Assembly (NCBI GenBank): GCA_963997635.1
Contig: CAXEND010000005.1
Location: forward strand, 74,232-138,231
Direction of reading: 5' to 3'
DNA: 64,000 nt
DNA from: an uncultured Rhodospirillaceae bacterium
GTDB taxonomy: Bacteria; Pseudomonadota; Alphaproteobacteria; UBA828
The notes under the pieces are model-generated. The model was given only the letters and a program-made list of their open reading frames with translations. It made no database searches and was not told where the DNA came from. This document shows, one piece after another, positions 1 to 42,809 of the stretch. Numbering within the stretch: position 1 is the first letter of the stretch; the number at the start of each line of letters is the position of its first letter. The position numbers and the translations under genes were made by a program.

Positions 1-972
1 AATGGAGGCGGATTCGGAGCCTATAAAATCACTGAGTGGTCTCCAGGAAAACGTGTTGTTATGGAGTCTAATGAACAATATTGGCGTGGAGCTCCCGAGA
101 TTAAAAAAATAATTTATCTCGTGGTTCCTGAGTCAGCAAACCGTGTAGCTTTATTGCAACAAGGTAAAGTTCATATGGCTGAAGGACTAACTCCTGATGA
201 AATTTTGTCATTAGATTCTTCTGACAAAGCTCGGGGTGTTGCAGTCCGCGGTAATCAGTCTATGTGGGTTGTTATTAACAATACATTGCCCCCATATGAT
301 AACGTTAAAGTCCGTCAGGCAATCAATCACTTGATTGATCGTGAGGCTATAGCAAACAATATTTATCATGGGATGATGAATGTATGGCAGGGTGTAATGC
401 CAAGTACATATCCCGGATATGATAAGTGGTTAAAGTATGACTACAATATTGAAAAAGCTAAGGCACTCTTGGCTGAAGCTGGATATGCTGATGGATTCGA
501 CGCCGAATTTGCATTCAGTGCAGCTGAAGCAACTCAAGAATCTATAGCAATATTGCTGCAGAGTGCTTTCAAAGCGGCGGGAATTAATCTAACGTTGAAA
601 AAGCTCCCAGTTGCTGCACATTCTGATCTCATTATGAGTAAGAAGGCTTCATTGGGTCTGTGGACAGATATGCCTATCCAGCCAGATATTAACTATGCTT
701 TAAAATTGGTTTGGCCAACAAATGCATTAGTTAACTATCATAACTTTAGTGATGAAAAGGTGGATGCTACCCTCAAGAAATGTGAGGGCGAGGTTGATGC
801 AAAAGCACGCATTGAGTGCCATGCTGGGATACAAGAACATATCCATGATCTTGCACCTCTAGGGTGGATTGGCGAGCAGTATTTTGCTGTTGGCTTATCT
901 AGGGCAGTCAGCGGTTTCCGTTGGTATACCACTCAGTATTATCATGTTAACGAAATGTCTATTGCGGAGTAA
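1..972 (+). CDS. ABC transporter solute-binding protein, family 5 (DppA/OppA-like), 5'-truncated by the window edge
   Basis: The reading frame is open from nt 1 (NGGGFGAYKITEWSPGKRVV-MESNEQYW...). The C-terminal domain architecture is typical of peptide/nickel/opine-binding proteins. Permease genes follow immediately. Confidence 0.8.
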   Translation, partial: NGGGFGAYKITEWSPGKRVVMESNEQYWRGAPEIKKIIYLVVPESANRVALLQQGKVHMAEGLTPDEILSLDSSDKARGVAVRGNQSMWVVINNTLPPYDNVKVRQAINHLIDREAIANNIYHGMMNVWQGVMPSTYPGYDKWLKYDYNIEKAKALLAEAGYADGFDAEFAFSAAEATQESIAILLQSAFKAAGINLTLKKLPVAAHSDLIMSKKASLGLWTDMPIQPDINYALKLVWPTNALVNYHNFSDEKVDATLKKCEGEVDAKARIECHAGIQEHIHDLAPLGWIGEQYFAVGLSRAVSGFRWYTTQYYHVNEMSIAE

Positions 973-1004
973 TTATAACCGTAATTAGATACAAAATTAG
1001 TGTA

Positions 1005-1033
1005 GTGGCGGCGTAGAATATTTACGTCGCCAC
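1005..1033 (+). promoter_or_regulatory. Intercistronic stem-loop between the binding-protein gene and the first permease gene
   Basis: gtggcggcgta-gaatatt-tacgtcgccac forms an 11-bp stem (one G-T wobble) with a 7-nt loop. No U-tract follows, so it is not a classic intrinsic terminator. Confidence 0.4.
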
Positions 1034-1048
1034 TTCACTCGAAAATGG

Positions 1049-2098
1049 TTGGCATTTATGCGCATACTTATTTATATCGGACGACGCCTGATATTTTTAA
1101 TACCCCAGGTTCTTCTGATTTCATTTATTACTTTTACACTCGTTCGTATGTTACCTGGCAATCCAGCAAGGATGTCCTTGGGACCTCTTGCACCTGAGTC
1201 TGCTATTGAGGCATTAAATGCAAAACTATTTTATGATCGTCCTATTCCTGAACAATATTGGATTTGGTTGCAAAATATTTTTACCGATTTTGACCTAGGC
1301 GAGTCTTGGGTAAATGGGTCAATGGTTATTGACGATATGGTACAGCGTATACCTGTTACACTTGAGGTTATGGTTTTAGCCCTTATTTTGGTAGCCATTG
1401 TTTTAGTGCCGCTAGCTATTGTAACTGCAGCAAAAACAAAAAATCGGATAGTTGTCTTTTTTCAAAATATTACCTTTGGCTACGGTATGCTAGCAGGAGC
1501 ATTACCAGACTTCTTGCTTGGGCTTTTATTAATTTTTATTTTCTTCACTAATGCTGGGATTATGCCTGGCCCTGAGGGACGGCTAGGCATACTAGATTTC
1601 GAGCCGCCATTTGTAACAGGTTCTATTTTATTAGACTCACTTTTTGCTGGAGATTGGGATTTATTTTGGAGTGGTGCCTGGCACCTAGCAATGCCAGTAT
1701 TCACTCTGGCATTTGTATATGGGGCACCGATCTTCAAGATGTTAAGAAGTCAAATGGAGGGAGCACTAACAGCAGATTATACAACCTATGGAGAAGCCAT
1801 AGGTTTAAGGTCACGCACAATCTTTATTCGTGCCGCTAGGGTCGCATCAGGACCTACACTTGTTATTACAGGCGTTGTTGTGATGTTTCTTTTGGGTGGT
1901 GCTGTATTAGTAGAAACAGTTTTTAATTTAAGTGGTTTGGGTCAATATGCTGTTCAAGCAATTGTTACAGCAGATTATGCACCTATCCAGGCCTTTGTTT
2001 CATTTGCTGCAATTTTTACAATGCTAGTCTATCTTGCTGTTGATTTAGCGCACTTTGCGATGGATCCACGGATAAAGATAGGCGGCTCTGACACGTGA
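1049..2098 (+). CDS. ABC transporter permease (DppB/OppB-like)
   Basis: 349 aa with multiple hydrophobic helices. Placed immediately after the family-5 binding-protein gene. Confidence 0.85.
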   Translation: MAFMRILIYIGRRLIFLIPQVLLISFITFTLVRMLPGNPARMSLGPLAPESAIEALNAKLFYDRPIPEQYWIWLQNIFTDFDLGESWVNGSMVIDDMVQRIPVTLEVMVLALILVAIVLVPLAIVTAAKTKNRIVVFFQNITFGYGMLAGALPDFLLGLLLIFIFFTNAGIMPGPEGRLGILDFEPPFVTGSILLDSLFAGDWDLFWSGAWHLAMPVFTLAFVYGAPIFKMLRSQMEGALTADYTTYGEAIGLRSRTIFIRAARVASGPTLVITGVVVMFLLGGAVLVETVFNLSGLGQYAVQAIVTADYAPIQAFVSFAAIFTMLVYLAVDLAHFAMDPRIKIGGSDT

Positions 2099-2111
2099 GT
2101 GATTTGGTAAT

Positions 2112-3842
2112 ATGTGGCTTCGATTAAAAGTAACTCTTCGTGATTTGCCAAAATGGCAATTAGCCGTAATAATTATGTGGTTAGGATTTATATTCCTTAC
2201 AGTTTTTGGACCAATGATTGCTCCTTTTCCTACAGAGGTTGCTGATCCAACTAATCGGCTTGTGCCACCAAATGGCACACACTGGTTTGGCACGGATGAA
2301 AATGGAATAGATATTTTATCACGTGTTCTAGCGGCCCCTCGTACTGATATTGTAATTGCAGTTATAGCTACAGCATTGTCAGTATTTTTGGGTTCTCCAC
2401 TTGGAGTGGTTGTGGCTCTCTATGAGAGCCGAAAGGGTGCAATCTCTTCAGCAGGTGCCGATATTTTCATGAGACTACTGGAGGTAATACAATCTTTCCC
2501 AGTATTTGTTTTTGCAATGGTATTGGTGGCAGTCTTCAGTGGTAGTCTTGTAAATATTATCATTGCCATTGCATTTGTGAACATGCCGGTATTTGTCCGC
2601 TTAGTCCGATCTGAAGTTTTATCACTTGTCCAGAGGCCTTTCTCGGAGGCAGCCCGTGCAGTAGGTAATACCGAAATGAGACTTGGTTTTCGTCATATAT
2701 TACCAAATGCCACTCCAACGGTTGTTGTTCAAGTCTCTGTAACTGTTGGGTTCGCAATTCTTTTGACAGCTGGTTTAAGCTTTGTTGGGGCCGGTGTTAA
2801 ACCTCCAACCCCTGAATTAGGTGCAATGATTGCAAGCGGTTCAAAGTATTTAATCATTGGACAATGGTGGCCTGCACTTTTCCCCGGTGTAGCACTAGGG
2901 TTAATAGTTTTTTCCTTTGGTATTGTCGGCGAGGTGATAAATAAAGTTCTCGACCCCCGTGTTGTCCGCGACGGTAGTGATCGTAGACGTAAGTTATCAA
3001 TAGAAAAAACATCGACAAGTGATATTTCAACTGAGGTTCCGCTTGAGGTTATGTCTACAGCTGAAAATCCAGTTTTGGAAGTTAATAACATTTTTGTTCA
3101 GGCAGGACCAAACGATGATCAGGGAATACTAAATGACGTTAGCTTCTCTATAGGCCCAGGAGAGAGTTTAGCTATTGTCGGCGAATCAGGGGCAGGGAAA
3201 ACTATACTTCTTAAGTCAGTTTTAAAGCTTTTACCTTTTCCATTAGAAATCAATTCAGGTTCAGTAAAATTTGAGTCTGCTGATCTCTTAGCTTTAGACC
3301 GAGAAAAGATCAGGCCTATGCGTTCGAGAGATATAGCTGCAATTCTTCCTAATGCAAAGTCACATCTTCATCCTCTAACTAACGTAGGTGATATGATAGT
3401 TAGTGCACTACAGGCTCACGAGAAAATTAAAAAGAATCAAGCAAGACAACGTGCGATTGAACTTCTTACTATGGTAGGAATAACTGACCCAGAAAATCGA
3501 TTAAAAGCATATCCACATGAACTAAGTGGTGGAATGGCACAGCGTATATGTTTAGCAATATCACTAATGTATAAACCAAAGATTTTAGTGGCAGATGAGC
3601 CAACAGCAGGTTTAGACGTGACAATTCAAAGGCAAGTGCTTGACTTGACTAAGAAGCTAGCTGAGGAGTCAAATACAGCAAGGCTAATAATCACTGGTGA
3701 TTTGGGTATAGCAGCACATTATTGTGATCGTGTTGCTGTAATGCAAGCTGGTAAGATTGTAGAGGCAAATTATACTCATAAACTATTCAAGAATCCGATG
3801 CACCCACATACTAAACAATTACTTGGTTCCGTTAGAGATTAA
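2112..3842 (+). CDS. Fused ABC permease (DppC/OppC-like, N-terminal) and ATP-binding domain (DppD/OppD-like, C-terminal)
   Basis: The N-terminal half has TM helices and an EAA-type loop (EAARAVGNTEMRLGFRHILPNA). The C-terminal half has Walker A GESGAGKT, ABC signature LSGGMAQR and Walker B ILVADEPTAGLD. Confidence 0.8.
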   Translation: MWLRLKVTLRDLPKWQLAVIIMWLGFIFLTVFGPMIAPFPTEVADPTNRLVPPNGTHWFGTDENGIDILSRVLAAPRTDIVIAVIATALSVFLGSPLGVVVALYESRKGAISSAGADIFMRLLEVIQSFPVFVFAMVLVAVFSGSLVNIIIAIAFVNMPVFVRLVRSEVLSLVQRPFSEAARAVGNTEMRLGFRHILPNATPTVVVQVSVTVGFAILLTAGLSFVGAGVKPPTPELGAMIASGSKYLIIGQWWPALFPGVALGLIVFSFGIVGEVINKVLDPRVVRDGSDRRRKLSIEKTSTSDISTEVPLEVMSTAENPVLEVNNIFVQAGPNDDQGILNDVSFSIGPGESLAIVGESGAGKTILLKSVLKLLPFPLEINSGSVKFESADLLALDREKIRPMRSRDIAAILPNAKSHLHPLTNVGDMIVSALQAHEKIKKNQARQRAIELLTMVGITDPENRLKAYPHELSGGMAQRICLAISLMYKPKILVADEPTAGLDVTIQRQVLDLTKKLAEESNTARLIITGDLGIAAHYCDRVAVMQAGKIVEANYTHKLFKNPMHPHTKQLLGSVRD

Positions 3843-3866
3843 TTTAATCTAAAAAAATCAATTAAA

Positions 3867-5636
3867 TCACATTGTTGATCTTAATTTTTCAGTTTCTTCA
3901 ATATTAACTTCAAGGTTGTCATCAGCTCTTGAGCCCTTAAGGATTACTCCGTATACCGATTTTGCAATATCCTCACTAACAACGTAATTCTGCACATCTT
4001 TAAGAACTCTCTCAGGCTCTCTTTCTACTGGTGGGCCGTAACCCCCGCCGCCCTGATCACGTGCAAGAAGTCGTTCTCCTTCTTCAAGGTCACATACCAT
4101 TACAGCAGGGTAAGGATGTTCCTTACCTTCCCTATCAATACGGATATTTTCTCCAAGTTTTGACCCGGTTCCTCCGCGAACTCCTATCGGAGCACTTTCT
4201 AAACCATTACAAATATGCAAGATATGAATAGGATCTTTTCGCGGTCCCATAATGACCTCAGTGCCCTGACCCCCACGTCTCCGACCGTGTCCCATCGAGT
4301 CCTCCATAAGATGCATTTTTTGCACAAGAACTGGGAAACGTTGTTCATCGACTTCTATACTATCTCTATACATAAGACCCGCAGTAACCGGAATAAACAA
4401 ATAATGCATGCCATCAGTTTCTGAAGATGCAGGGCCGCCTCCACCCATCATGAATATCTGATTAACATAGGCCTCTCCGTCTCGGCGCCAATCTGTTCCA
4501 GAGGCAACGCCTGCTGCTGCGGTATTACAGTAATTACCATGGGCATAGCCTTGTCCATCACCAAGATCAGCAAAAGATGACTGAGTTACATTTACTATAA
4601 TATCTGTTAGGTTTGTTGTAGCTACTGAGCAGCTATGCGGGAATCTTGGTATCCCCACCACACAGTTCTCACGCAAATGAACTTTTATTCTTCGCATAAT
4701 TCCTTGATTTGTTGGTAGGTCGTGGCCAAGGCATGACAGAACCCCATGTGCCGCTGCCATGGTTGCCGTGCATTCAGTCAAATTTAAACCTGCATCTATA
4801 CAGTCAATATTATCTCTTAAATCAACAGTGACCATTGCTTCGTCTGGATCAATATCAATCTTAACATTCACGGGTATTCCATCAGGAACCCATGGCTCTA
4901 TGGGGTCATGGGATTGGTTAGCTTCAAGCTTACCTTTCGGTAATTTTTTGATAGCTTCGATACATCGGCGTTCAGAGTAATCAAGCCATTCTTTTACAAA
5001 AGCACGGACAGTCTCTTTGCCATATTTTTCAACAAATTTCTTAAGGCTACGTTCACCTATTCTTGCCGCTCCTATAGCAGCAAGAAAATCTCCATACCAT
5101 TGATCGGGGACACGAATACGTCGGCGACACATTCGGACGATATCTTCTATATTTGTATAATTTTCTTGTACTTTTACAGCCGGGAATATAAGCGTCCCTT
5201 CTTGATATACATCTCCCGCCTGAGCCATATAGGTTGTTGGAAGACTGTTACCGGTATCAGCTTGATGAGCCTTTACAGCAGTAGTGAAGAAATGTTCTCC
5301 TTCGAAGAAAACAGGAACCAGCATGGTGTGATCCGCTGCATGACTGTTCCCGTCGTATGGGTCATTATGCAAAAAAGCATCACCCTCCTTGAAGTTAGGA
5401 TGATTCTTTCGCATGCAGGCGGTTTGCAGATTACTGCCCCACACATGGATAGGAAATCCTTCTGCTGCGGCGAGCACTTCATCTTCGGAAGTCACAATTG
5501 AAACAGAGAAGTCTCTTGCGACTCCCAAGACTGATGATCGTGCTGTGAGTAACATGGTATTGGTCATCTCACGGCAGACTGAATCGAGTCTATTCGACAT
5601 AATTGAGAGTTGAACCGGGCTTAATTCTTCAACCAT
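3867..5636 (-). CDS. Hydantoinase B / oxoprolinase-family protein (HyuB), duplicate copy
   Basis: 589 aa of HyuB-type sequence. It is 100% identical to the adjacent copy from about residue 25 onward. Own SD (AGGAGG) upstream. Confidence 0.8.
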   Translation of the reverse strand: MVEELSPVQLSIMSNRLDSVCREMTNTMLLTARSSVLGVARDFSVSIVTSEDEVLAAAEGFPIHVWGSNLQTACMRKNHPNFKEGDAFLHNDPYDGNSHAADHTMLVPVFFEGEHFFTTAVKAHQADTGNSLPTTYMAQAGDVYQEGTLIFPAVKVQENYTNIEDIVRMCRRRIRVPDQWYGDFLAAIGAARIGERSLKKFVEKYGKETVRAFVKEWLDYSERRCIEAIKKLPKGKLEANQSHDPIEPWVPDGIPVNVKIDIDPDEAMVTVDLRDNIDCIDAGLNLTECTATMAAAHGVLSCLGHDLPTNQGIMRRIKVHLRENCVVGIPRFPHSCSVATTNLTDIIVNVTQSSFADLGDGQGYAHGNYCNTAAAGVASGTDWRRDGEAYVNQIFMMGGGGPASSETDGMHYLFIPVTAGLMYRDSIEVDEQRFPVLVQKMHLMEDSMGHGRRRGGQGTEVIMGPRKDPIHILHICNGLESAPIGVRGGTGSKLGENIRIDREGKEHPYPAVMVCDLEEGERLLARDQGGGGYGPPVEREPERVLKDVQNYVVSEDIAKSVYGVILKGSRADDNLEVNIEETEKLRSTM

Positions 5637-5704
5637 CTCAAAATACCTCCTAAAGTGTTATGTTTACTAATCGCTATATATTTAAATTCTTGATAAATCT
5701 TTTA

Positions 5705-7465
5705 TTACATTGTTGATCTTAATTTTTCAGTTTCTTCAATATTAACTTCAAGGTTGTCATCAGCTCTTGAGCCCTTAAGGATTACTCCGTATACCGATTT
5801 TGCAATATCCTCACTAACAACGTAATTCTGCACATCTTTAAGAACTCTCTCAGGCTCTCTTTCTACTGGTGGGCCGTAACCCCCGCCGCCCTGATCACGT
5901 GCAAGAAGTCGTTCTCCTTCTTCAAGGTCACATACCATTACAGCAGGGTAAGGATGTTCCTTACCTTCCCTATCAATACGGATATTTTCTCCAAGTTTTG
6001 ACCCGGTTCCTCCGCGAACTCCTATCGGAGCACTTTCTAAACCATTACAAATATGCAAGATATGAATAGGATCTTTTCGCGGTCCCATAATGACCTCAGT
6101 GCCCTGACCCCCACGTCTCCGACCGTGTCCCATCGAGTCCTCCATAAGATGCATTTTTTGCACAAGAACTGGGAAACGTTGTTCATCGACTTCTATACTA
6201 TCTCTATACATAAGACCCGCAGTAACCGGAATAAACAAATAATGCATGCCATCAGTTTCTGAAGATGCAGGGCCGCCTCCACCCATCATGAATATCTGAT
6301 TAACATAGGCCTCTCCGTCTCGGCGCCAATCTGTTCCAGAGGCAACGCCTGCTGCTGCGGTATTACAGTAATTACCATGGGCATAGCCTTGTCCATCACC
6401 AAGATCAGCAAAAGATGACTGAGTTACATTTACTATAATATCTGTTAGGTTTGTTGTAGCTACTGAGCAGCTATGCGGGAATCTTGGTATCCCCACCACA
6501 CAGTTCTCACGCAAATGAACTTTTATTCTTCGCATAATTCCTTGATTTGTTGGTAGGTCGTGGCCAAGGCATGACAGAACCCCATGTGCCGCTGCCATGG
6601 TTGCCGTGCATTCAGTCAAATTTAAACCTGCATCTATACAGTCAATATTATCTCTTAAATCAACAGTGACCATTGCTTCGTCTGGATCAATATCAATCTT
6701 AACATTCACGGGTATTCCATCAGGAACCCATGGCTCTATGGGGTCATGGGATTGGTTAGCTTCAAGCTTACCTTTCGGTAATTTTTTGATAGCTTCGATA
6801 CATCGGCGTTCAGAGTAATCAAGCCATTCTTTTACAAAAGCACGGACAGTCTCTTTGCCATATTTTTCAACAAATTTCTTAAGGCTACGTTCACCTATTC
6901 TTGCCGCTCCTATAGCAGCAAGAAAATCTCCATACCATTGATCGGGGACACGAATACGTCGGCGACACATTCGGACGATATCTTCTATATTTGTATAATT
7001 TTCTTGTACTTTTACAGCCGGGAATATAAGCGTCCCTTCTTGATATACATCTCCCGCCTGAGCCATATAGGTTGTTGGAAGACTGTTACCGGTATCAGCT
7101 TGATGAGCCTTTACAGCAGTAGTGAAGAAATGTTCTCCTTCGAAGAAAACAGGAACCAGCATGGTGTGATCCGCTGCATGACTGTTCCCGTCGTATGGGT
7201 CATTATGCAAAAAAGCATCACCCTCCTTGAAGTTAGGATGATTCTTTCGCATGCAGGCGGTTTGCAGATTACTGCCCCACACATGGATAGGAAATCCTTC
7301 TGCTGCGGCGAGCACTTCATCTTCGGAAGTCACAATTGAAACAGAGAAGTCTCTTGCGACTCCCAAGACTGATGATCGTGCTGTGAGTAACATGGTATTG
7401 GTCATCTCACGGCAGACAGCATCCATTCTATTCGACATAATTGAGAGTTGAACCGGGCTTAACAT
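5705..7465 (-). CDS. Hydantoinase B / oxoprolinase-family protein (HyuB)
   Basis: 586 aa. Directly downstream of hyuA with a 41-bp gap. SD agga sits 8 nt upstream of the ATG. Confidence 0.85.
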   Translation of the reverse strand: MLSPVQLSIMSNRMDAVCREMTNTMLLTARSSVLGVARDFSVSIVTSEDEVLAAAEGFPIHVWGSNLQTACMRKNHPNFKEGDAFLHNDPYDGNSHAADHTMLVPVFFEGEHFFTTAVKAHQADTGNSLPTTYMAQAGDVYQEGTLIFPAVKVQENYTNIEDIVRMCRRRIRVPDQWYGDFLAAIGAARIGERSLKKFVEKYGKETVRAFVKEWLDYSERRCIEAIKKLPKGKLEANQSHDPIEPWVPDGIPVNVKIDIDPDEAMVTVDLRDNIDCIDAGLNLTECTATMAAAHGVLSCLGHDLPTNQGIMRRIKVHLRENCVVGIPRFPHSCSVATTNLTDIIVNVTQSSFADLGDGQGYAHGNYCNTAAAGVASGTDWRRDGEAYVNQIFMMGGGGPASSETDGMHYLFIPVTAGLMYRDSIEVDEQRFPVLVQKMHLMEDSMGHGRRRGGQGTEVIMGPRKDPIHILHICNGLESAPIGVRGGTGSKLGENIRIDREGKEHPYPAVMVCDLEEGERLLARDQGGGGYGPPVEREPERVLKDVQNYVVSEDIAKSVYGVILKGSRADDNLEVNIEETEKLRSTM

Positions 7466-7506
7466 TTAGAATTCCTGAATTTTTGAATTAAATTATTGAT
7501 TTTCTA

Positions 7507-9591
7507 TTATGAATTGGGTGTTAGAAGATAGTGCCCATTCGGAGTTACTAATGCACTGCTTCCAGGATAGATAACAACTGTGGTAGTTGGTTCTTCGATT
7601 ATGGCAGGACCTTCAATCTCAAATTCAGCTGGTAACTTAGATCCAATATAGACTGGTGTTTGAGCGTTTCCATAGTTGGCAAAATATGCTGAAACTTCAC
7701 GATCTGGATCACTTGATGTCGAAACTTTTTGATCAGCTTGGGCATGCGGTGGTTTACTCATTTCTGCAGTTATACGCCCTTTCCAATTAATACATTCTAT
7801 TATTCCACCATCTTCTTTAACTGCATAACGCCTGAAATGCACATTGTGAAATTCTTCTACTAATTCTTCAACATGTCCGGAGTTTTCAATGTTTAGCATA
7901 GGTATTCTAAATTCCATTTCCCACTGTTGGTTAAGATATCTGGCTTCTACAAAAAACTCACGAGTAAAATTACTTACTCCTCTAGATCTCAGTGCTGATT
8001 CTTCTATATCAAGCTTTGCGTTTAGCTCAGTAAATACTTTTTGAACTCCTTTAAAATCAAAATCATCTGTAGCTGAATATCTACTGGCACTGTATTCGGA
8101 TACAATATCAGAATAGTGTCCACCACAGGCACTCAGTGCACCCGCAGTTTTTGGTAAAAGCACCTTAGAACAACCTAGGGATTGTGCTATTGGTAGAATA
8201 TTAAGACCTGCTGCCCCGCCGCCTGCAACTAGTATGCTTTCTGCAGGGTTTACTCCATCTTGAACAGTAATTTCCTGAATAGCTTTAATCATTTGTTCTC
8301 CGGCTATTTCAAGTATTCCAGCAGCTGTTTCTTCAAGACTCATCTCAATCTTGCCTGCAAGTTCATTGATTACCTCATTAGCGGCATTTATATCAAGAGC
8401 CATACGCCCACCTAAGAAATGATTTGGGTCTATGTAGCCAAGTAATACAGCTGCATCTGTGACTGTAGGCCTTTTTCCTCCTTTAGCATAGCAGGCGGGG
8501 CCTGGGTCAGCCCCCGCACTATCCGGCCCAACTCTTAGAAGTCCACCTGAGTCAATCCATGCTACTGAACCTCCTCCTGCACCCACGCTTCTTATATCGA
8601 CAGAAGATAATCCAAGATTGTGTCCAATCCATTCTCCATTTAGCCAAGTATCACGTGTATATTTTATTTCACCAGCTCGGATCAGACTTACGTCAAAGGT
8701 AGTACCACCAGTATCGACAATAATTACATCATTTCCAAGGCCTTCAGCTCCAGCATAGGCAATACCTGCTAACGGTGCCATTGCAGGCCCAGATTTTACT
8801 GTAAATATTGGCTTTTCCACAACGTCATTGACATGTTTAATTCCACCTGAAGAAGTGCTTATTAAGAATTCACCCTCGTAACCAGCACTACGGAGTTCTT
8901 TTTCAAGTTCCAAAAAGTGCTTTTGCATTAGAGGTTTTAAAGAAGCATCAATAGCAGTGGACGATGTTCTTGGAAATTCACGAATAATAGGGTTCAGTTG
9001 GTGAGAGAGAGTATAAGGCACATTAGGAAGTATTTCTTTAATTAATTCTCCAACCTTTAACTCGTGCTGTGGGTTCATGATTGACCATAAAAAACTAACG
9101 GCTATAGCTTCAATATTCTTTTTTTGTAACGACTTAATTGTTTCAGAGGCTTGGTTGATATCCAATGGGGTTTCAATTCCACCTTCTGAGTTTATACGTT
9201 CTTTTATTTCTTCTGTTAAACGTCTTGGTATATAAGGATCAGGAAATTCCATTTTAAGATTTAATGGCTCTCGTTTGCCACCATGGCGATAAGTGAGTGT
9301 GTCTGGGAATCCCTCAGTGGTCAGTAAGGCTGTTTTTGCAGCAGAAGATGTCACTATCGCATTTGTAGAACGGGTAGTGCCGTAAATAAGCACACCAGTA
9401 TGCTTGAGAATTTCCTCCATTGATGAATCAAAAGAGGAGGCTGCGTTATTCAATGCTCCTGAAAATCCAGTAAAAACTCTGTCAGGTGTTGTAAGAGCCT
9501 TTCCAACAACAAGTTTGCCTTTTTCATCTGCAACCACTACATCTGTAAATGTACCCCCGGTATCGACCGAAATTCTAAATTCCATAGTCAA
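7507..9591 (-). CDS. Hydantoinase A / N-methylhydantoinase A-family protein (HyuA)
   Basis: N-terminal MEFRISVDTGGTFTDVVV actin-like ATPase fold motif. 694 aa, the typical HyuA length. Paired with hyuB. Confidence 0.85.
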   Translation of the reverse strand: MTMEFRISVDTGGTFTDVVVADEKGKLVVGKALTTPDRVFTGFSGALNNAASSFDSSMEEILKHTGVLIYGTTRSTNAIVTSSAAKTALLTTEGFPDTLTYRHGGKREPLNLKMEFPDPYIPRRLTEEIKERINSEGGIETPLDINQASETIKSLQKKNIEAIAVSFLWSIMNPQHELKVGELIKEILPNVPYTLSHQLNPIIREFPRTSSTAIDASLKPLMQKHFLELEKELRSAGYEGEFLISTSSGGIKHVNDVVEKPIFTVKSGPAMAPLAGIAYAGAEGLGNDVIIVDTGGTTFDVSLIRAGEIKYTRDTWLNGEWIGHNLGLSSVDIRSVGAGGGSVAWIDSGGLLRVGPDSAGADPGPACYAKGGKRPTVTDAAVLLGYIDPNHFLGGRMALDINAANEVINELAGKIEMSLEETAAGILEIAGEQMIKAIQEITVQDGVNPAESILVAGGGAAGLNILPIAQSLGCSKVLLPKTAGALSACGGHYSDIVSEYSASRYSATDDFDFKGVQKVFTELNAKLDIEESALRSRGVSNFTREFFVEARYLNQQWEMEFRIPMLNIENSGHVEELVEEFHNVHFRRYAVKEDGGIIECINWKGRITAEMSKPPHAQADQKVSTSSDPDREVSAYFANYGNAQTPVYIGSKLPAEFEIEGPAIIEEPTTTVVIYPGSSALVTPNGHYLLTPNS

Positions 9592-9621
9592 TTTGCTCCC
9601 ATTTCTAATCTAATAATAATT

Positions 9622-10836
9622 TCACCAAGCTTTACGCAAAAGTTCTATAACTTCTTGTTCTGAGTTAACCGTTCTAGGATTACTTGCAACAATCAGATCC
9701 TCCATAGCATCCTTAGCAATACCTGCAAAGTCTTCCTCGTTTACCCCTACGTCTCTTAACCGCCAAGGGAGGCCAAGGTCATCGCGGATAAGTTTTTGAA
9801 TTTCATCTCGAGCAAGAATTGCAGACTCTTCCGTAGTTTTATTACGAGTGTCAAGTCCTAATGCATCTGCTACTATTGCTTGTTGTTCAGCATTTACAGA
9901 GCTATTAAATTCTAGAACGCGTGGTAACATGACGGCTGAGGTTTCACCATGGGCGACATCACATCTTGCTCCAAGTTGATGTCCTATTCCGTGGCTAAGG
10001 CCTAGAGTTACATTTGCAAGGCCACAAACAGACATCCATGCTGCTACCATACACTGACCTCGTGCAGATAGATCATCAGGGTTCTCTTTTGTTTCCCTTA
10101 AATAGGTTGCCAACATGTTAAGTGCACGAAAGGATAAAGCATCAGTAAAAGGCTGATGTGTTTTACTGCATAGTGCTTCTACACAATGGTCCACTGCTCT
10201 GATACCTGTGCCTAGCCAGAGTCGTTCAGGAGTTGCCAAAGTTAGATCTGGGTCAAGAAATACAGCCTTTGCAGTTATACGGGGGTCTAAATATAGATCT
10301 TTAACCTTTCGTTCTTCATCTGTCATTCCAACAAAGAATGTAAACTCACCTGCTGAGAGTGTTGTAGGGATGGCAAACATTGGAAGAGGATCACTAGTAA
10401 GGGAAGGAATTTCTACTTTATCGGGGTACTCAAACTTAATACGATATTTATCTAATTGAGTTTTTTCAGTAATATTCTCTGCTAGGCAGATTAACACTGA
10501 TTTTGCTGTATCATTTGGTGTACCTCCACCAAAACTAATAATACAGTCAGCATTTTTTTCTCTAGCAAAAGCAGAGGCATTAATTACAGAATCTCTATGA
10601 ACATGCTGTATTGTATCTGAAAACACGCCTGCACAGCGATTACCTAATGTTTTCTCTAATTTTTCTACAAGGTCTGTCTTTGTAGCAAGAGTATTTCCTG
10701 TAATGATCACGGCATTTTTTATGCCAGATTTATCTAATTCTTCTACAATCTTGTCAGAACAGCCTGAACCAAAATGAACAATATCCATTGGTAAGTTAGA
10801 ATATTGTCCCGTTAAATTTTCCTTAGGGAAAGTTCC
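9622..10836 (-). CDS. Iron-containing alcohol dehydrogenase-family protein
   Basis: GGGTPNDTAK (GGGSxxDxAK-like) and HGIGHQLG metal-binding motifs. The ORF track starts at 10872, but GGGAG followed by a 6-nt spacer favours the ATG at 10836 (MGTFPKE...). Confidence 0.7.
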   Translation of the reverse strand, partial: GTFPKENLTGQYSNLPMDIVHFGSGCSDKIVEELDKSGIKNAVIITGNTLATKTDLVEKLEKTLGNRCAGVFSDTIQHVHRDSVINASAFAREKNADCIISFGGGTPNDTAKSVLICLAENITEKTQLDKYRIKFEYPDKVEIPSLTSDPLPMFAIPTTLSAGEFTFFVGMTDEERKVKDLYLDPRITAKAVFLDPDLTLATPERLWLGTGIRAVDHCVEALCSKTHQPFTDALSFRALNMLATYLRETKENPDDLSARGQCMVAAWMSVCGLANVTLGLSHGIGHQLGARCDVAHGETSAVMLPRVLEFNSSVNAEQQAIVADALGLDTRNKTTEESAILARDEIQKLIRDDLGLPWRLRDVGVNEEDFAGIAKDAMEDLIVASNPRTVNSEQEVIELLRKAW

Positions 10837-10962
10837 CATTTTCATCTCCCACAAAAATACTTTGTTTAACACCCTATTATAGCCTGAGCATCCCCTATGT
10901 ATGCAAATTTTTTTTGTAAAACCTGTTCTTATTTAGGCAAGAATTGTATGATAGGGTTATAG
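10837..10962. promoter_or_regulatory. Divergent intergenic region (Fe-ADH <- -> TPR protein), presumed promoters
   Basis: AT-rich 126-bp spacer between divergently transcribed genes. No motif confirmed. Confidence 0.25.
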
Positions 10963-12309
10963 ATGACTTCACAAAACCAAAATGATCTTAATATTGCCAT
11001 TGCTGCTTTCCAGAAGGGTGAATTAGATACCGCCGAGAGAGTTTGCATAAATATACTATCTCGTGATAGTTGCGATGCGGGAGCTAATTATATTTTAGCA
11101 CTAATTAATGGGCAAAAAGGTCTAAAAAACGTTGCTATAAATCATTTTCGTGAGGCTATATTTATTGCCCCAGAATATTTTAATTATAGAATTGCTCTAT
11201 CGTCCTATTATTTAGAAATTAACAACCCAGAATCTGCTATAAAAGAGTTAGAAATAGTTCTTAGTAAAGTTCCTGACTCAATCGCAGCCCATACAAATAT
11301 AGGCACTGCTTTTAAGAAAAAAGGAAATTTAGAAAAAGCATTGGCTCATTTCGACAAAGCAGCTTTTTTATTTCGGAAACCTCAAGATAAAGATTTTATT
11401 AATAATAATCGCCAGAATGAGGTGCATCCAACATTTTCAATGACAAGAGAAACAAAACTGGAACATGATATCCAACAATTAGAATTTCTTCAAAGTCGTT
11501 ATCCTTCAAACGTGATTTTCAGTCAATACGCAAATAAAATGCTCGATGTATTAGCTAGTTTTAGAAGTCGCAATATTAATAATGGTCTTGGATCGTTCTC
11601 TGAACTGGAATATGAAAAAATATATGATTTTTATAACAAAATATTATTTAGGCCTATTTTACATGATGAAAGTCCTATTTTAGGAGACCACAAAGTTAAC
11701 ACTCTTTTATCAGAGAGGTTTGATTATAAAGCTGATGATATAGTTATCATTGATGATTTTTTAAGTGAGGTGAGTCTAGTAAACGTCCAGCGTTATTGTC
11801 TTGAATCAACTGTTTGGTTCGACACCAAAAATGACTCAGGTTATTTGGGTGCATACATGCATGATGGTTTTATTCCTAGTTTCACATTAGCAATCCAGCC
11901 AGCCTTAAGGGAAAAGTGGGAAAAACTTTTTTTAGGTAAAGTTTTGAAACAACTCTGGGCTTTCAAATATGTTTCAGAGGGAGAAGGTACAAGATTTCAT
12001 GCAGATGATGCTTCAATAAATGTTAATCTTTGGATAACCCCTGACAATTGTTGCTTCGACCCTGAGAACTCCGGTCTAACTCTATTTCCCATTAATATTC
12101 CTGAGAACATTGCCTTTTCATATTATAACAATGACAAAAATCGACTTAATGATTTGATTAAGGGACGTGAGAGGGAAAAGCTTATAATCCCTTATAAGTG
12201 TAATAGGGCGGTAATTTTTAAGTCTAGGTTTATTCATAAGACTTCTGGTTGCAAATTTATACCAGGCTATGAAAATAGAAGAATAAATATTACTTTACTC
12301 TTTGATTGA
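10963..12309 (+). CDS. TPR-repeat protein with a C-terminal cupin / 2OG-Fe(II)-oxygenase-like domain
   Basis: The N-terminal ~140 aa are TPR-like helical repeats. The C-terminal region carries an FHADDAS ... FIHKTSG (HxD...H-like) pattern and ends RINITLLFD. Confidence 0.45.
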   Translation: MTSQNQNDLNIAIAAFQKGELDTAERVCINILSRDSCDAGANYILALINGQKGLKNVAINHFREAIFIAPEYFNYRIALSSYYLEINNPESAIKELEIVLSKVPDSIAAHTNIGTAFKKKGNLEKALAHFDKAAFLFRKPQDKDFINNNRQNEVHPTFSMTRETKLEHDIQQLEFLQSRYPSNVIFSQYANKMLDVLASFRSRNINNGLGSFSELEYEKIYDFYNKILFRPILHDESPILGDHKVNTLLSERFDYKADDIVIIDDFLSEVSLVNVQRYCLESTVWFDTKNDSGYLGAYMHDGFIPSFTLAIQPALREKWEKLFLGKVLKQLWAFKYVSEGEGTRFHADDASINVNLWITPDNCCFDPENSGLTLFPINIPENIAFSYYNNDKNRLNDLIKGREREKLIIPYKCNRAVIFKSRFIHKTSGCKFIPGYENRRINITLLFD

Positions 12310-12312
12310 TTA

Positions 12313-14214
12313 TTAACCGATATTGTAGTCATCTAAAGAAGGTTCCTGAGTCATGGTCCAGTAGTCAACTAATCTCCAAGGCATTATTGATACTACACGG
12401 CCTGAACTGTTCCTATACCATGTATTCATGTTTGGAGTCGTCCAAATTAGACCCTCATGTTCTTCATCAAGTTTTTTATTATATTGATCATAAACACTTC
12501 TTTTACACTCAAGAGAATTAACGTTATTTTCAATAGAATGCATAAGTAACTTAGTTAGATAACGCACTTGGCACTCAGCAATAAAAATAATACTTCCACC
12601 ATGACCTAGATTTGTATTTGGTCCATAAAGAGCAAAGAAATTAGGAAATCCAGGTATTGTCATTCCTAAGTAGGCACGCGAGTCATCCTTTCCCCACTCA
12701 TCCTCTAGGTTTGCCCCATCTTTGCCTATGAGCTCGTAGCTAGCAAGTAATCTATTGGTTTGGAAGCCAGTAGCATATAGAAGGGCATCCAACTGAACTA
12801 GTTCCCCAGATTTTATTCTTATTCCGTTTTTTTCTATTTTTTTAATGGAGTCATTAAAAAGATTTACATTGTCTTTTTTGACTGTTTCGTACCATCTATT
12901 GTCTACCAATATTCTTTTTAAATAAGGTGGATAACTTGGGACAACTTTTTCTAAGAGATCTGTTCGATCCCCTATTTGCTTTTTAATATATTCTAATAAA
13001 CGTTGTCTATGGCGATCATTTCTTTTATTTACTGATTTTCCTCCAGACTCCCACTCGGGATCTCTACGAACAGTATGTAAGAGATGGTCTCCCATACGCC
13101 AAGCTAAATTAAATCTATACCAACCAGCATAGAATGGCACATTTTCTAGTAACCAGACTTTTTCAGTAGAAACTTCTCTATGGTAATCAGGACTCGGTAT
13201 AGCCCATTGGGCTGTGCGTTGAAAAATTGAGAGGCATTTAACCTCATCTACAATTTCTGGTATTAATTGCATACCACTAGCACCAGTGCCTATTACTCCT
13301 ACATTTTTCCCTTTGAGGTTTATATTCTTGTTCCATTTTGCAGTATGTGTCGAAAAACCTTCAAAATTTTCAAGACCTTCAATTCTTGGGTAAGCTGGGA
13401 TATTAAGTTGACCAGTCGCGGAGATAACAGTATGTGCAAGAAGTTCAACTTCCTTCCCTTCATTATCGACTGTGGTTACACACCACGTATTATTACTATT
13501 ATTTAGCTTGCATGCTGTTACGCGTGTATTAAAGATAGTATTTTCATATACTCCATGTTTTGTAGCAAAAGAGCGTAAATATTCAGCGATATCTTCTCCA
13601 TACGAATAATAATTTGGCCATTTATTATTTCTCTCAAATGAAAAAGAGTAATAATGGTTGGGAACGTCGCATCGGACGCCTGGGTAAGTATTTTCGAACC
13701 AGGTACCCCCTATATCATTATTTTTTTCTATAATTACAAAAGGAATTCCAGCTTCCCTTAGTTTTACTCCCATCAGCATGCCCGATACGCCTGCACCAAT
13801 GATTATTACATTCTTAGTTGTTAAAGTATTATTATCTGGTTTTTCTTTCCATGACCCATATCTTTCTTTCAGCTGCATTTCTTCAAGCATCATATTAAGA
13901 TATTCTTCAGGGACATCTTCTCCAACGCATGTTGACATCATTTCCAGATAAGTTTCGTCAGAAATTTTTAAATCAGGTAATTTTCCTGAAACAAAAAATT
14001 TATTTAACAATTCTAGGGCAGCACTCCTCACCTGACTTTGTAACGCACTATCTAGCCCGCCGGATTCGTGAGCAAAAAATGAAAAGTCTAGAACAGGTTT
14101 GAAAGGAGGGTTAAGCCATTTCTTATCACCAGTAAAATGATAAAGCACCATTAACAGAATAGGTATGTCGGCTTTTTCGATAGCCCACTTAATTTTGTTT
14201 GATATGTCGTTCAT
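12313..14214 (-). CDS. Baeyer-Villiger (flavin-containing) monooxygenase with an N-terminal extension
   Basis: Two Rossmann motifs (GAGVSGM and GTGASGM). BVMO fingerprint FEGFSTHTAKW (FxGxxxHxxxW). GTWFENTYPGVRCDVPNHYYSFSF region. Confidence 0.8.
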   Translation of the reverse strand: MNDISNKIKWAIEKADIPILLMVLYHFTGDKKWLNPPFKPVLDFSFFAHESGGLDSALQSQVRSAALELLNKFFVSGKLPDLKISDETYLEMMSTCVGEDVPEEYLNMMLEEMQLKERYGSWKEKPDNNTLTTKNVIIIGAGVSGMLMGVKLREAGIPFVIIEKNNDIGGTWFENTYPGVRCDVPNHYYSFSFERNNKWPNYYSYGEDIAEYLRSFATKHGVYENTIFNTRVTACKLNNSNNTWCVTTVDNEGKEVELLAHTVISATGQLNIPAYPRIEGLENFEGFSTHTAKWNKNINLKGKNVGVIGTGASGMQLIPEIVDEVKCLSIFQRTAQWAIPSPDYHREVSTEKVWLLENVPFYAGWYRFNLAWRMGDHLLHTVRRDPEWESGGKSVNKRNDRHRQRLLEYIKKQIGDRTDLLEKVVPSYPPYLKRILVDNRWYETVKKDNVNLFNDSIKKIEKNGIRIKSGELVQLDALLYATGFQTNRLLASYELIGKDGANLEDEWGKDDSRAYLGMTIPGFPNFFALYGPNTNLGHGGSIIFIAECQVRYLTKLLMHSIENNVNSLECKRSVYDQYNKKLDEEHEGLIWTTPNMNTWYRNSSGRVVSIMPWRLVDYWTMTQEPSLDDYNIG

Positions 14215-14333
14215 TGATATTGCCTGAAATTTTATAATGTAAGAAATGGTTCTCTTGGGTTTATGTGAATTATTTTAGGTGGGTGTATTTCATTTAAAAT
14301 TATTATTTATTAATTTTTGTTCTTTTGAAAGAT

Positions 14334-15263
14334 CTAACATTTGTCAATTTTCCTAATCCACTTGCCAACTTCATTAAAGGCGTCCTTATAAGTATTTAGA
14401 GCTTTCGGCATGCCTAAAAACCCATGTAACATATCAGAGTAGTGGGAATGTGTAACAGATATTGATAATTCTCTGAGCTTTTCTACAAACTCAAAACCTT
14501 CATCTCTTAAGGGGTCAAGACCTGCAGTCATGATATAAGTTTGTGGACTTCTTGATAGGTTTGGCGACAGAATAATTGAAATGTTAGGGTCATCCTTTGA
14601 TGTTTCTGAGCAATAAGATTGAATAAACCAATCCATCACAGCTGTATCCAAAAGGAATTTACTCCCAAATTCGGAGTATGAATTTCTCTTCATTGAGGTA
14701 TCCAAAACAGGATAAATTAATATTTGACCTTTGGGTTTTTTCTCTTTTGGAATTTTAATAGAAGTTGAGGCTATCAAATTTCCACCGGCACTATCACCAA
14801 CGCCAATAATTGAACTTGGTTGCAGATTATGTTGGAATATTACTTGATCCAAAGAAGAAAAAGCCAAAATCATATCATTCAAAGCAGCGGGGTATGGATG
14901 TTCGGGTGCAAGCCTGTATTCTACTGATAATACATTGCATGACCCTGCGGATGATAATCTCCTACAAAAATTATCGTATTCTTCAAGTCCAGCGAGAACC
15001 CAGCCTCCGCCATGGGCAAAAACTATAAGTGGTGCGTTGGTATTTTCTGAATGCTGGTATAAACGGCAAAGTAATTTATCCTTATCAAGCCCTATAGTTA
15101 GGTCCTCAACTTTGTATATAGGTTCATGATCTGTTTCTAATACCCGCATCCTCCTGCGGAACTCGACTCTGGCCTCAGCAGGATCATAAGTTTCAATACT
15201 TGGTAAGTTGGCGTCTGCAACTCGTTTTAAAAGTATTTCAATTTCAGGGTTTTTCTGGGTCAT
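14334..15263 (-). CDS. Alpha/beta-hydrolase fold-3 esterase/lipase (HSL family)
   Basis: HGGGW oxyanion motif and GDSAGG nucleophile elbow. 4-bp overlap with the downstream LLM gene. Confidence 0.8.
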   Translation of the reverse strand: MTQKNPEIEILLKRVADANLPSIETYDPAEARVEFRRRMRVLETDHEPIYKVEDLTIGLDKDKLLCRLYQHSENTNAPLIVFAHGGGWVLAGLEEYDNFCRRLSSAGSCNVLSVEYRLAPEHPYPAALNDMILAFSSLDQVIFQHNLQPSSIIGVGDSAGGNLIASTSIKIPKEKKPKGQILIYPVLDTSMKRNSYSEFGSKFLLDTAVMDWFIQSYCSETSKDDPNISIILSPNLSRSPQTYIMTAGLDPLRDEGFEFVEKLRELSISVTHSHYSDMLHGFLGMPKALNTYKDAFNEVGKWIRKIDKC

Positions 15264-16240
15264 ACATTTATTTCCCTTAGAAGCGGTAAGACTTCAGAGC
15301 CAAAAATCTCAGCCTGTTCATTTCGTTGATTCTCTGGGCCAGCAAAATCAATAACAAAGTTGCGAACTCCAGAGTCAATAAAATCTGAAAAAAAACTTGT
15401 TACATTTTCCTTAGGACCCAAAGCGACGTATTTTTTCGTTGGTCCGCTAAAATCCATACCATAACGTTGACTTAGTTGCTCTGAGGCTAAATCAAAAGAT
15501 TTTTCATATTCGTTATCTAATCTGACAAATATGTGATGAGCCGTATCAAAGGATCTTTCTTCTGAATTTTCTTCGAGATAAAACTCTTCGATCATTTTAA
15601 TAGATTTAGCGAACATTTCTGGTGTCACTACGTAAGATATATATCCATCGCATAATTTTGCTGCACGTTTTAAGGCAGCCTTTGACCTTCCACCAGCCCA
15701 TATAGGTGGCTGTTTAAGTTTGTATGGAGTCGGCTCAAGCTTAAGGTCAGTAAAATTTGCACTAATTCCAGAATGACTGACTTTTTCTCCAGACCAAAGT
15801 TTTTTAATTACATGAAGCGAATCAGTAAGACGTGCACCTCTATCTGAAACATTTACTCCGCAGGCCTCAAATTCTTTTTCATATTCTCCACCTACACCAA
15901 CCCCAAAAGTGAATTTTCCTTCACAAATTTGGTCTAGGCATGCAATTTGCTTTGCTACCGGGACAGGGTGTCTTAGTGGTAAAAGATATATGGCAGTACC
16001 AAATTCTAAGCTAGGAGCTTTTGCAGAAGCCCATGCAATTAATGTTAATGGGTCTACAATCGGACTTACGAAAGCTATATGGTCACCTGACCAAAACGAG
16101 TCAAAACCATAATTCTCTAAGATTGTGAGTAATTCTGAACAATTTTTAAGATCGGGTTCCCAATTAGTTTGTGCAGGATCTCTGGGAAGGCACATCCCTT
16201 GCACACCAAACTTAACTGTATCCGCAATTTGCAAAGACAT
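15260..16240 (-). CDS. LLM-class flavin-dependent oxidoreductase (luciferase-like monooxygenase family)
   Basis: TIM-barrel LLM-like sequence. The ORF track starts at 16255, but GGAGA plus a 5-nt spacer favours the ATG at 16240 (MSLQIAD...). Confidence 0.7.
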   Translation of the reverse strand: MSLQIADTVKFGVQGMCLPRDPAQTNWEPDLKNCSELLTILENYGFDSFWSGDHIAFVSPIVDPLTLIAWASAKAPSLEFGTAIYLLPLRHPVPVAKQIACLDQICEGKFTFGVGVGGEYEKEFEACGVNVSDRGARLTDSLHVIKKLWSGEKVSHSGISANFTDLKLEPTPYKLKQPPIWAGGRSKAALKRAAKLCDGYISYVVTPEMFAKSIKMIEEFYLEENSEERSFDTAHHIFVRLDNEYEKSFDLASEQLSQRYGMDFSGPTKKYVALGPKENVTSFFSDFIDSGVRNFVIDFAGPENQRNEQAEIFGSEVLPLLREINV

Positions 16241-16364
16241 TTTTATCTCCAACATTTGCTAAGTTGCAAGCATGAGGTTTGAAAGATAGGTTGTATTAAT
16301 CTTTGATTACTATAAACATTAATAATTTACTAACTATACTTTATTTAAAGCTAGGAGACAAAGT
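16241..16364. promoter_or_regulatory. Divergent intergenic region (LLM <- -> CMD-family gene)
   Basis: 124-bp AT-rich spacer. No motif confirmed. Confidence 0.2.
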
Positions 16365-16934
16365 ATGCCAGAACCCTTGCTGAAAAAAATTGAAGAAGCC
16401 AACATGGACCCAGAGTTGGCAGCCAAATATCGTAAGATTCGTGATTTACAAGAAAAAAAGGGTGGGGATGCAACATTGTTTGAGGTTGGAGCTAATGCTC
16501 CCGAATTGATGAAGTGGTATGGTGACCAATTTTACGAAACAATTTTCTATGGTGGTCGAGTAGATGTAGCTACTAAGGAACTTCTAAGGTTTAGGTTATC
16601 TAATATCCATGGATGTGCATTTTGTAATAAAGGTAATATAGAAGATGCTCGTAGTGCAGGAATTACTGAGGAAAAGTTGATTAATATTATGAATGAAGAT
16701 AGTGATGTTTTTAGCTCAAAGGAAAGAGCAGTGTTAAAGTTGGCAAGTGAGGTGGTTTTTAGCAATATGTCTGGAACTTTAGATAAGGAGCTTTATAGCG
16801 ATTTATCAAAAGATTTTGATGATGGGCAAATTTTTGAGTTAGGGATGGTTGCAGGTTTTTTGACGGGAATGGCCAAATTTTTGTTTACTTTTGATTTAGT
16901 AGAAAAAGAAGCAAACTGTCCTATCAAAATATAG
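16365..16934 (+). CDS. Carboxymuconolactone decarboxylase-family (AhpD-like) protein
   Basis: 189 aa, all-alpha, with an HGCAFC motif characteristic of the CMD/AhpD family. Confidence 0.6.
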   Translation: MPEPLLKKIEEANMDPELAAKYRKIRDLQEKKGGDATLFEVGANAPELMKWYGDQFYETIFYGGRVDVATKELLRFRLSNIHGCAFCNKGNIEDARSAGITEEKLINIMNEDSDVFSSKERAVLKLASEVVFSNMSGTLDKELYSDLSKDFDDGQIFELGMVAGFLTGMAKFLFTFDLVEKEANCPIKI

Positions 16935-17012
16935 GCTGGTATATGTCACAATTAATACAACTATAATATATAAGTATAAAAAACAATTCCGAAAGAATAA
17001 GGGGGTAAGGGG

Positions 17013-18566: not shown

Positions 18567-18580
18567 ATTTAATCGGGTGT

Positions 18581-22618: not shown

Positions 22619-22636
22619 TTTTACTCCCCCAAGTTT

Positions 22637-24604: not shown

Positions 24605-24674
24605 TTCCCCCCCCCACCGAGCATTTATAAGACTTCGGATATCCAATGTTAAGGTTAGCTGCTAGGAGGTGCAA
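24605..24674. promoter_or_regulatory. Short divergent leader region containing a G9/C9 homopolymer 3 nt upstream of the flavoenzyme start codon
   Basis: On the minus strand the sequence reads GGTGGGGGGGGGAAATG. AGGAGG lies upstream of the GMC gene on the plus strand. Confidence 0.3.
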
Positions 24675-31324: not shown

Positions 31325-31359
31325 TACAAAATAACTCCAAGTAAATAGGGGAGATAAAT

Positions 31360-32088: not shown

Positions 32089-32092
32089 GAAT

Positions 32093-33805: not shown

Positions 33806-33879
33806 GGCTCTTGATTAGATCTGAGATGAGTTTTCTATGTTTTTTTACTTATATTATAGAAGTCAAATTTATATAGGAG

Positions 33880-42636: not shown

Positions 42637-42809
42637 CACTGACTCCATTTCTAATCAATGCAATGATTTTATTTTATTACTAGATTTATAAAACAATAAT
42701 GATTTTGAAAACAGACAAATTAAACTTTAATTTTACGCTATTTAACCATCTATTGTTGTATGTTAATTATATTTATTTTTTATGGTTACCTGGTAAAAGG
42801 GAGATTCTC

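Follow-up and report, generated by a model that had tools for sequence, protein, structure and literature searches.

Long-lasting, recurrent concerted evolution has been reported for only 26 prokaryotic genes, most of them encoding subunits of complexes (Wang & Chen 2018, PMC6053082). The list includes the tandem pairs fla and mtrA, and partner subunits were argued to homogenise together for balance (PMC6053082). Here we focused on a stretch of 64,000 nucleotides (the window) from an uncultured Rhodospirillaceae bacterium (GenBank assembly GCA_963997635.1, contig CAXEND010000005.1, positions 74,232 to 138,231), in which two near-identical copies of hyuB, the gene for one subunit of a hydantoinase-type enzyme, follow one another downstream of the gene for the partner subunit, hyuA. 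We give a probability of roughly 0.8 to the reading that these copies, the hyuA-proximal hyuB and the distal hyuB', are an old tandem paralog pair that undergoes concerted evolution by homologous recombination.

The pair has much in common with the described cases. As in tufA/tufB and the 26 listed genes, two paralogs of one genome are more alike than orthologues from different genomes, synonymous sites included, and, as in the listed genes, homogenisation does not extend past the homologous region, is seen in several lineages and affects a gene for one subunit of a stable complex. The difference is that the hyuB copies are direct tandem repeats 68 nucleotides (nt) apart in one operon, and that a single subunit of a heteromer is doubled. 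The tuf copies are dispersed in the genome. hyuB is absent from the 26-gene list (PMC6053082), and a literature search returned no paper linking hydantoinases with gene conversion and nothing relevant on hyuB duplication.

HyuB belongs to a family of ATP-dependent hydantoinases, oxoprolinases and lactamases whose partner, a HyuA-type ATPase, is encoded adjacently. Its best solved match is the caprolactamase beta subunit CapB (6YRA_B, E=3e-59) of Pseudomonas jessenii, and CapAB (PDB 6YRA) is likewise a two-gene system of an A subunit (ASKHA ATPase) and a B subunit (metal-dependent hydrolase). CapAB forms an (alpha-beta)2 heterotetramer in the order A-B-B-A with a B-B core, in which CapB touches CapA through its first long helix (PMC8453981). 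It has a single B-type subunit, CapB (PMC8453981), whereas the window operon encodes two HyuB. Judged by their scores against the NCBIfam caprolactamase equivalogs NF050156 / NF050157 (HyuB 276.9 and HyuA 549.5 bits, cut-off 1000 bits), the window proteins are related to CapA/CapB without being the same enzyme. The ApcA, ApcC and ApcD equivalogs were matched with 119-300 bits against cut-offs of 1250-1500, and the alcohol dehydrogenase-hyuA-hyuB-hyuB' operon holds no gene for a small subunit of acetone or acetophenone carboxylase (gamma, or epsilon for Apc). Acetophenone carboxylase nevertheless offers a precedent in the superfamily for a duplicated subunit gene, as its subunits alpha and alpha' are both used in one complex (PMC5214803). 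These are HyuA-like ATPases, 30% identical and functionally distinct (PMC5214803), in contrast to the near-identical HyuB-like proteins found here, and we therefore discarded them as a precedent for two HyuB-like subunits.

The two hyuB copies in the window

Base-by-base comparison, together with a blastn search of the window against itself, showed that the two genes repeat with a period of 1838 nt and are identical over 1711 nt with 0 mismatches, synonymous sites included. Next to this tract there are 4 mismatches in 9 nt (at 5580, 5582, 5586 and 5588 versus their partners), followed by 36 nt that are again identical and that, relative to the closest syntenic contig (L004, see below), were homogenised within the window. 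Outside 3869-5624 the two units have unrelated flanks; we found no similarity between the two upstream regions nor between the two downstream regions. The hyuB repeat is the sole large repeat of the window.

These results bear out the head-to-tail, near-identical pair with a period of 1838 nt and products of 589 and 586 amino acids (aa) that an earlier annotation from the letters alone (the sequence-only reading) had described, and correct it in several details. The genes lie on the minus strand, so that each unit has its divergent 5' end at its higher coordinates. The proteins diverge over only the first 20 codons (three extra distal codons, Met to Leu and Ala to Ser), not over ~25 as proposed, and divergence is not confined to the 5' ends, which do differ, since the stop codons differ too. 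Given that the stops are TGA in one copy and TAA in the other, the identity has almost exactly the extent of the shared coding sequence.

Both copies are intact open reading frames (ORFs) with a full-length match to PF02538 (E ~1e-122; distal copy E=1e-122), scoring 409-411 bits against a cut-off of 26.8 and covering profile positions 2-519 of 519. Look-ups of the two exact HyuB sequences and of HyuA in the public gene collection returned no record. Their proteins differ at the N-terminus only, which reads MVEELSPVQLSIMSNRLDSV in the distal and MLSPVQLSIMSNRMDAV in the proximal copy. The proximal version matches the hyuA-adjacent genes of seven related loci (L004, L005, L030, L031, L032, L036 and L006; related loci carry L numbers here), while the hyuA-adjacent genes of the L007/L009/L029 clade read RLDSI instead. 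The 9-nt island encodes Leu17/Ser19 in the distal and Met14/Ala16 in the proximal copy, and each state matches the same-position copy in L031: the proximal ATG GAT GCT resembles L004 and the proximal gene of L031, and the distal CTC GAT TCA resembles the CTT GAT TCT of the distal gene of L031. The sole residues that distinguish the window proteins fall in the helix aligned to the CapA-contacting helix of CapB.

Each copy had been credited with its own Shine-Dalgarno site; this holds for the distal copy, whose GGAGG is strong, whereas the proximal site, AGGAA at 7472-7476, is weak. A crude scan of the coding strand of the spacer between the copies revealed no promoter-like or terminator-like site, giving no support to an independent promoter for the distal copy, and hyuB and hyuB' are therefore probably co-transcribed. 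The antisense ORFs that the sequence-only reading had pointed out inside both copies are spurious: since 12 of 13 orthologous sequences interrupt them with 2-5 stop codons, they are not genes.

Tandem pairs in related genomes

Beyond the window, tandem hyuB-hyuB' was found in three assemblies (L031, L007 and L001), from lineages ~24% divergent in DNA. L031, a contig of 757 kb, carries a complete hyuA-hyuB-hyuB', whose hyuB genes encode 588 aa (proximal, 5998-7764) and 591 aa (distal, 7840-9615). In L007, hyuB (10007-11773) is followed by the first 290 nt of a second copy, where the contig ends, and L001, a Tara Oceans contig, starts inside the spacer and carries a distal-type gene. L001 additionally holds fragments of an IS3-family transposase (HTH_Tnp_1, HTH_21; 1965-2700) between its distal-type hyuB and the ABC transporter.

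Since these independent assemblies carry a homologous junction, the tandem arrangement is biological. This bears on the alternative that survives best, although we consider it rather improbable: an artefact of assembly or polishing, by which the second copy would not exist (an unrolled repeat or a strain chimera), the identity would stem from polishing, or there would be more than two copies. Against such an origin, the window junction of hyuB end, spacer and distal-type start is specific to the window in sequence, even though it is organised as in the other assemblies, the window is free of Ns, and differing stops, differing starts and a four-mismatch island are not expected from a simple unrolling error. 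What keeps the artefact in play is that exact 1.7-kb repeats are hard to assemble, that related short-read contigs break here (L007 in the second copy, L001 in the spacer, L060 and L053 inside hyuB), and that the copies in L031 and in the L007 clade are 94-97% identical, below the 100% of the window. The sequence-only reading had argued against an assembly artefact, and was right as far as the tandem arrangement is concerned; the exact 100% identity is a property of the assembly.

To gain an idea of the age of the pair, we turned to the distal 5' end. All four distal copies (window, L031, L007 and L001) have a GGAG(G/A)T ribosome-binding site and three extra N-terminal codons, a combination that no proximal or single-copy gene compared possesses. 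The extended starts are ATG GTT GAA GAA in the window, ATG GTT GAA AAA in L031 and GTG GCA AAC AAA in L007/L001 (MVEE, MVEK and VANK). In 773 kb of fetched DNA the pattern of site plus extension occurs four times, each time at a distal copy. The four distal copies also share a Leu (CTC, CTT or TTG) at the family-wide Met of NRM(D/E); outside them it was seen only in the L007/L009/L029 clade, whose hyuA-adjacent genes read RLDSI like their distal partners. Over the 40 nt upstream of the shared sequence, the similarity between the distal copies of the window and L031 beats 5000 of 5000 shuffles, while the same segment compared between the distal and proximal copies of the window is like random (p=0.8). 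The gene body, in turn, is 75-77% identical between the window and the other tandem lineages, with saturated synonymous divergence. On these sequence comparisons the distal 5' end is at least as old as the split of the clades, unless it moved between them; the alternative to an ancestral pair is that the distal copy spread from lineage to lineage by transfer.

The same evidence bears on the possibility that hyuB was duplicated de novo and in tandem only very recently in the window lineage, with a junction near the 5' end, which was the first alternative offered by the sequence-only reading. A fresh duplication would have copied the upstream flank, yet the distal upstream region, start and first three codons are unlike the proximal ones, and the distal 5' end is orthologous to those of L031, L007 and L001 in spite of their ~24% divergence. 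It would also need breakpoints that fall exactly at codon 2 and at the stop codon, and this a second time in L031. Thus, even though 0 differences over 1711 nt and a closest relative, L004, with a single copy are what such an event would leave, the unrelated flanks and the distal 5' end orthologous across lineages contradict it, and we regard it as very improbable.

In the gene body, the two copies are always closer to each other than to orthologues, whether within a genome or within the L007/L001 clade. Nucleotide identity between copies is 100% in the window, 94.3% in L031 and 94.2% for proximal L007 versus distal L001, as opposed to 75-81% between clades; L004 has 81.4% DNA identity despite 94% protein identity, and the synonymous divergence (dS) between the window and L031 is saturated. 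Where the copies are not identical, their differences are arranged in tracts. The 106 differences between the L031 copies form a mosaic with one 286-nt block without any difference and a cluster of 24 differences in 60 nt, and the longest run of agreeing polymorphic sites was reached in 0 of 10,000 permutations (p<1e-4). The L007/L001 clade has 3 differences over the first ~960 nt versus 94 over the last ~780 nt, and its proximal gene has, in addition, acquired the Leu/Ser patch of the distal copy. Among the pairs compared, the window shows the most complete homogenisation, comprising all pairable sequence except the 9-nt island. That purifying selection on the protein was by itself enough to maintain the identity of two old copies, with no recombination, has a negligible probability, because strong constraint on the family (nonsynonymous-to-synonymous ratio dN/dS of 0.04-0.15 among relatives) cannot explain synonymous sites that are identical over 570 codons, which excludes protein-level selection as the cause, when orthologues with 94% protein identity have 81% DNA identity and dS to L031 is saturated. 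Identity that is higher within than between genomes, shared position-specific features, homogenised synonymous sites and tract structure are thus all found, and the identity matrix and the mosaic tracts in relatives favour the second alternative of the sequence-only reading, gene conversion of an older duplicate.

The locus itself is a hotspot of hyu gene-content change: the frame from the alcohol dehydrogenase gene to the ABC transporter is conserved among relatives, and its hyu content varies, from two different hyuA-hyuB pairs (A1-B1 and A2-B2) through one pair of either type to A2-B2-B2'. One hyuA-hyuB pair is present in L004, L005, L009 and L029 and, with a more distant gene type, in L010, L011, L013 and L037. 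L060 begins as single-pair loci do, and its contig breaks off 327 nt into hyuB. L002 (3492-11554), L035 and L036 hold A1-B1-A2-B2, two different pairs one after the other, whose corresponding genes are ~67% and 74% identical. We rejected an origin of the window pair from this arrangement by loss of a hyuA, because the window HyuA is of the A2 type (81% versus 68% identity), both HyuB are of the B2 type (88% versus 73%), and the distal N-terminus is unlike B1. L004, the closest syntenic contig (94% HyuB protein identity), is labelled as a gammaproteobacterial metagenome-assembled genome (MAG).

The comparison of relatives for one versus two hyuB copies, which the sequence-only reading had suggested as a check, thus gave a mixed outcome, with a pair in L031, L007 and L001 and a single gene in L004 and L005. 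Both states occur even within one MAG, "Rhodospirillaceae bacterium SP354," whose contigs L007 and L009 are 98.8% identical over 3 kb of hyuA-hyuB; L007 continues into a second hyuB and L009 into the ABC transporter. This difference is either a copy-number polymorphism between strains or an assembly collapse of the tandem.

Proposed recombination, selection and function

Under concerted evolution, recombination between the direct repeats would repeatedly overwrite one copy with the other, in a lineage of uncultured marine (alpha)proteobacteria in which hyuB and hyuB' are part of an alcohol dehydrogenase-hyuA-hyuB-hyuB' operon. The route may be non-reciprocal gene conversion, possibly in addition to cycles of unequal crossing-over; unequal exchange between sister chromatids, taking the copy number from 2 to 3 and back to 2, would give the same outcome. 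Either route would leave the outermost, non-homologous ends position-specific, and the molecular machinery would presumably be RecA-type recombination. In the window lineage, the latest event or events would have homogenised the 1711 nt and the 36-nt stretch, halting where homology ends, with the stop codon as one limit and the private start region of the distal copy as the other, and would have left unconverted the 9-nt island with its Met/Ala versus Leu/Ser. A single such island between identical stretches fits patchy mismatch repair of one long heteroduplex, and it also fits selection against convertants at those residues.

Several points weigh against an old pair in concert. The closest relatives, L004 and L005, appear to be single-copy, and L060 breaks inside hyuB; if the pair is ancestral, it must have been lost repeatedly or collapsed in assembly there, and the apparent single copy in L004 and L005 may reflect either. 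Outside the 5' end, the trans-lineage paralog-specific nucleotide signal is weak, because synonymous sites are saturated. The L001/L007 comparison joins two different assemblies of one clade, and both the copy number and the perfect identity in the window come from the assembly alone. When reads map to more than one place, polishing can remove genuine differences between paralogs. Lastly, the expression of both copies is a prediction from their sequence.

Kilobase direct repeats are readily deleted by recombination. Given that 1.7-kb direct repeats would otherwise be lost and that the pair persists in three clades, the pair seems to be maintained by selection for two genes. Selection on copy number is plausible, and the window pair might provide two doses of nearly the same subunit, from different ribosome-binding sites and with one hyuA. 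However, relatives keep copies with divergent pockets, so that retention need not concern dosage.

This pocket divergence concerns a motif that reads FIPVTAGLMY or FVAVGAGLLY. The latter form is found in the distal gene of L031, the proximal gene of L007, L009 and the database protein P0004, and both window copies have the former. Aligned to CapB, the changed residues fall on Pro408 and Cys410 of the pocket and on the residue just before Leu415, also a pocket residue; Cys411 lies within the motif as well. This hints at different substrate pockets. That the variant is distal in the L031 clade and proximal in the SP354 clade is as expected if segments were exchanged. We abandoned the 130-nt pocket segment as a trans-lineage nucleotide marker, since its third codon positions are saturated and only its amino acid states are therefore informative. 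Most of the beta-type pocket states are family-ancestral and hence weaker evidence of age than the 5' end.

A more far-reaching, and in our view unlikely, possibility is that one HyuA and two versions of HyuB make up a long-lived, selectively kept two-paralog system of marine proteobacteria. A B/B' core of an (AB)2 complex would then be possible, and the pocket differences in relatives would give two specificities per operon, while recombination would shuffle or reset the divergence and selection would protect the island. If true, the pair would depart from the "balanced complex" pattern of prokaryotic genes under long-lasting concerted evolution, in that a single subunit is affected.

Surroundings and meaning of the pair

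The features of the hyu block and its boundaries are collected in Table 1. On the minus strand, an Fe-dependent alcohol dehydrogenase gene is followed by hyuA, hyuB, the spacer and hyuB', with 41 nt between hyuA and hyuB, 68 nt between hyuB and hyuB', and no additional ORF in the operon. The ABC transporter genes are convergent with this block and form a conserved downstream boundary of the locus. Their last ORF (2112-3842, plus strand, 576 aa) fuses BPD_transp_1 to ABC_tran, a fusion kept in all related loci.

Table 1. Coordinates of the hyuB pair, its parts and the adjoining genes in the window
Feature	Coordinates	Strand	Basis or remark
hyuB' (distal), 589 aa, Hydantoinase_B, last gene of the operon	3867..5636	-	ORF, PF02538; stop TGA (3867-3869)
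hyuB (proximal), 586 aa, Hydantoinase_B, directly downstream of hyuA	5705..7465	-	ORF, PF02538; stop TAA (5705-5707)
Homogenised tract, distal copy	3869..5579	-	1711 nt identical to 5707-7417
Homogenised tract, proximal copy	5707..7417	-	Partner of 3869-5579
Unconverted island, distal copy	5580..5588	-	Partner 7418-7426, 4 mismatches/9 nt
Second identical stretch	5589..5624	-	36 nt, partner 7427-7462, codons LSPVQLSIMSNR
Distal-specific 5' end	5625..5650	-	GGAGG Shine-Dalgarno 5646-5650, ATG 5634-5636, extra codons GTT GAA GAA 5625-5633
AT-rich spacer between the copies, 68 nt	5637..5704	-	
Antisense ORFs, 133 aa each	5100-5501 and 6938-7339	+	Open only in the window and L006
hyuA, 694 aa, single partner ATPase subunit, upstream of both hyuB	7507..9591	-	Hydant_A_N, Hydantoinase_A and Hydant_A_C domains; 81% identical to A2-type hyuA of L002
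Fe-dependent alcohol dehydrogenase family gene, first in the alcohol dehydrogenase-hyuA-hyuB(-hyuB') block	9622..10872	-	Domain; synteny with L004, L005, L007, L031 and others
Peptide-type ABC transporter: SBP_bac_5, permease, fused permease-ATPase	61..3842	+	Domains; synteny

As a control, the window contains another pair of adjacent tandem paralogs, of the Oxidored_FMN family (20573-24646, minus strand; 681 and 669 aa), which are 28% identical. This Oxidored_FMN / pyridine-nucleotide oxidoreductase pair represents the ordinary diverged state, in contrast to the hyuB pair. A second hyuA (676 aa) and hyuB (564 aa) at 46481-50202 on the minus strand were considered as recombination partners and dismissed, as that HyuB is 29% identical and of another subfamily.

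The only internal similarity besides the hyuB repeat joins 42211-42329 and 50824-50942 (119 nt, 80% identity), with one end inside a luciferase-like monooxygenase gene. The surroundings are rich in oxygenases and hydrolases (12313-20550, 30181-35411 and 41608-42648) and include genes for an FMO-like monooxygenase, three luciferase-like monooxygenases, an alpha/beta hydrolase, an acyl-CoA ligase-type AMP-binding enzyme and a GMC oxidoreductase. There is also a urease alpha-subunit gene (32093-33805), whose best named relatives are from marine "Rhodospirillaceae/Alphaproteobacteria" MAGs. This gene content suggests that the region may be a catabolic island for small organic nitrogen and carbon compounds. 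An Rfam scan of the whole window gave no matches.

The hyuB pair adds a new example to concerted evolution, a process that is itself well described, and it is mildly unusual in being a tandem within one operon and in doubling only one subunit of a heteromer. With it, the gene for a subunit of an ATP-dependent hydantoinase/lactamase joins the short list of recurrently concerted prokaryotic genes. It also shows how dating a duplication from the identity of its copies can mislead, as a young-looking pair here predates the split of lineages with saturated synonymous sites. Near-identical tandems of this kind break or collapse short-read metagenome assemblies, and, since related contigs end at hyuB, the copy number of hyuB in MAGs is probably under-reported. 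Finally, the pocket-divergent versions in relatives provide a concrete hypothesis on the substrate range of an abundant, uncharacterised marine enzyme.

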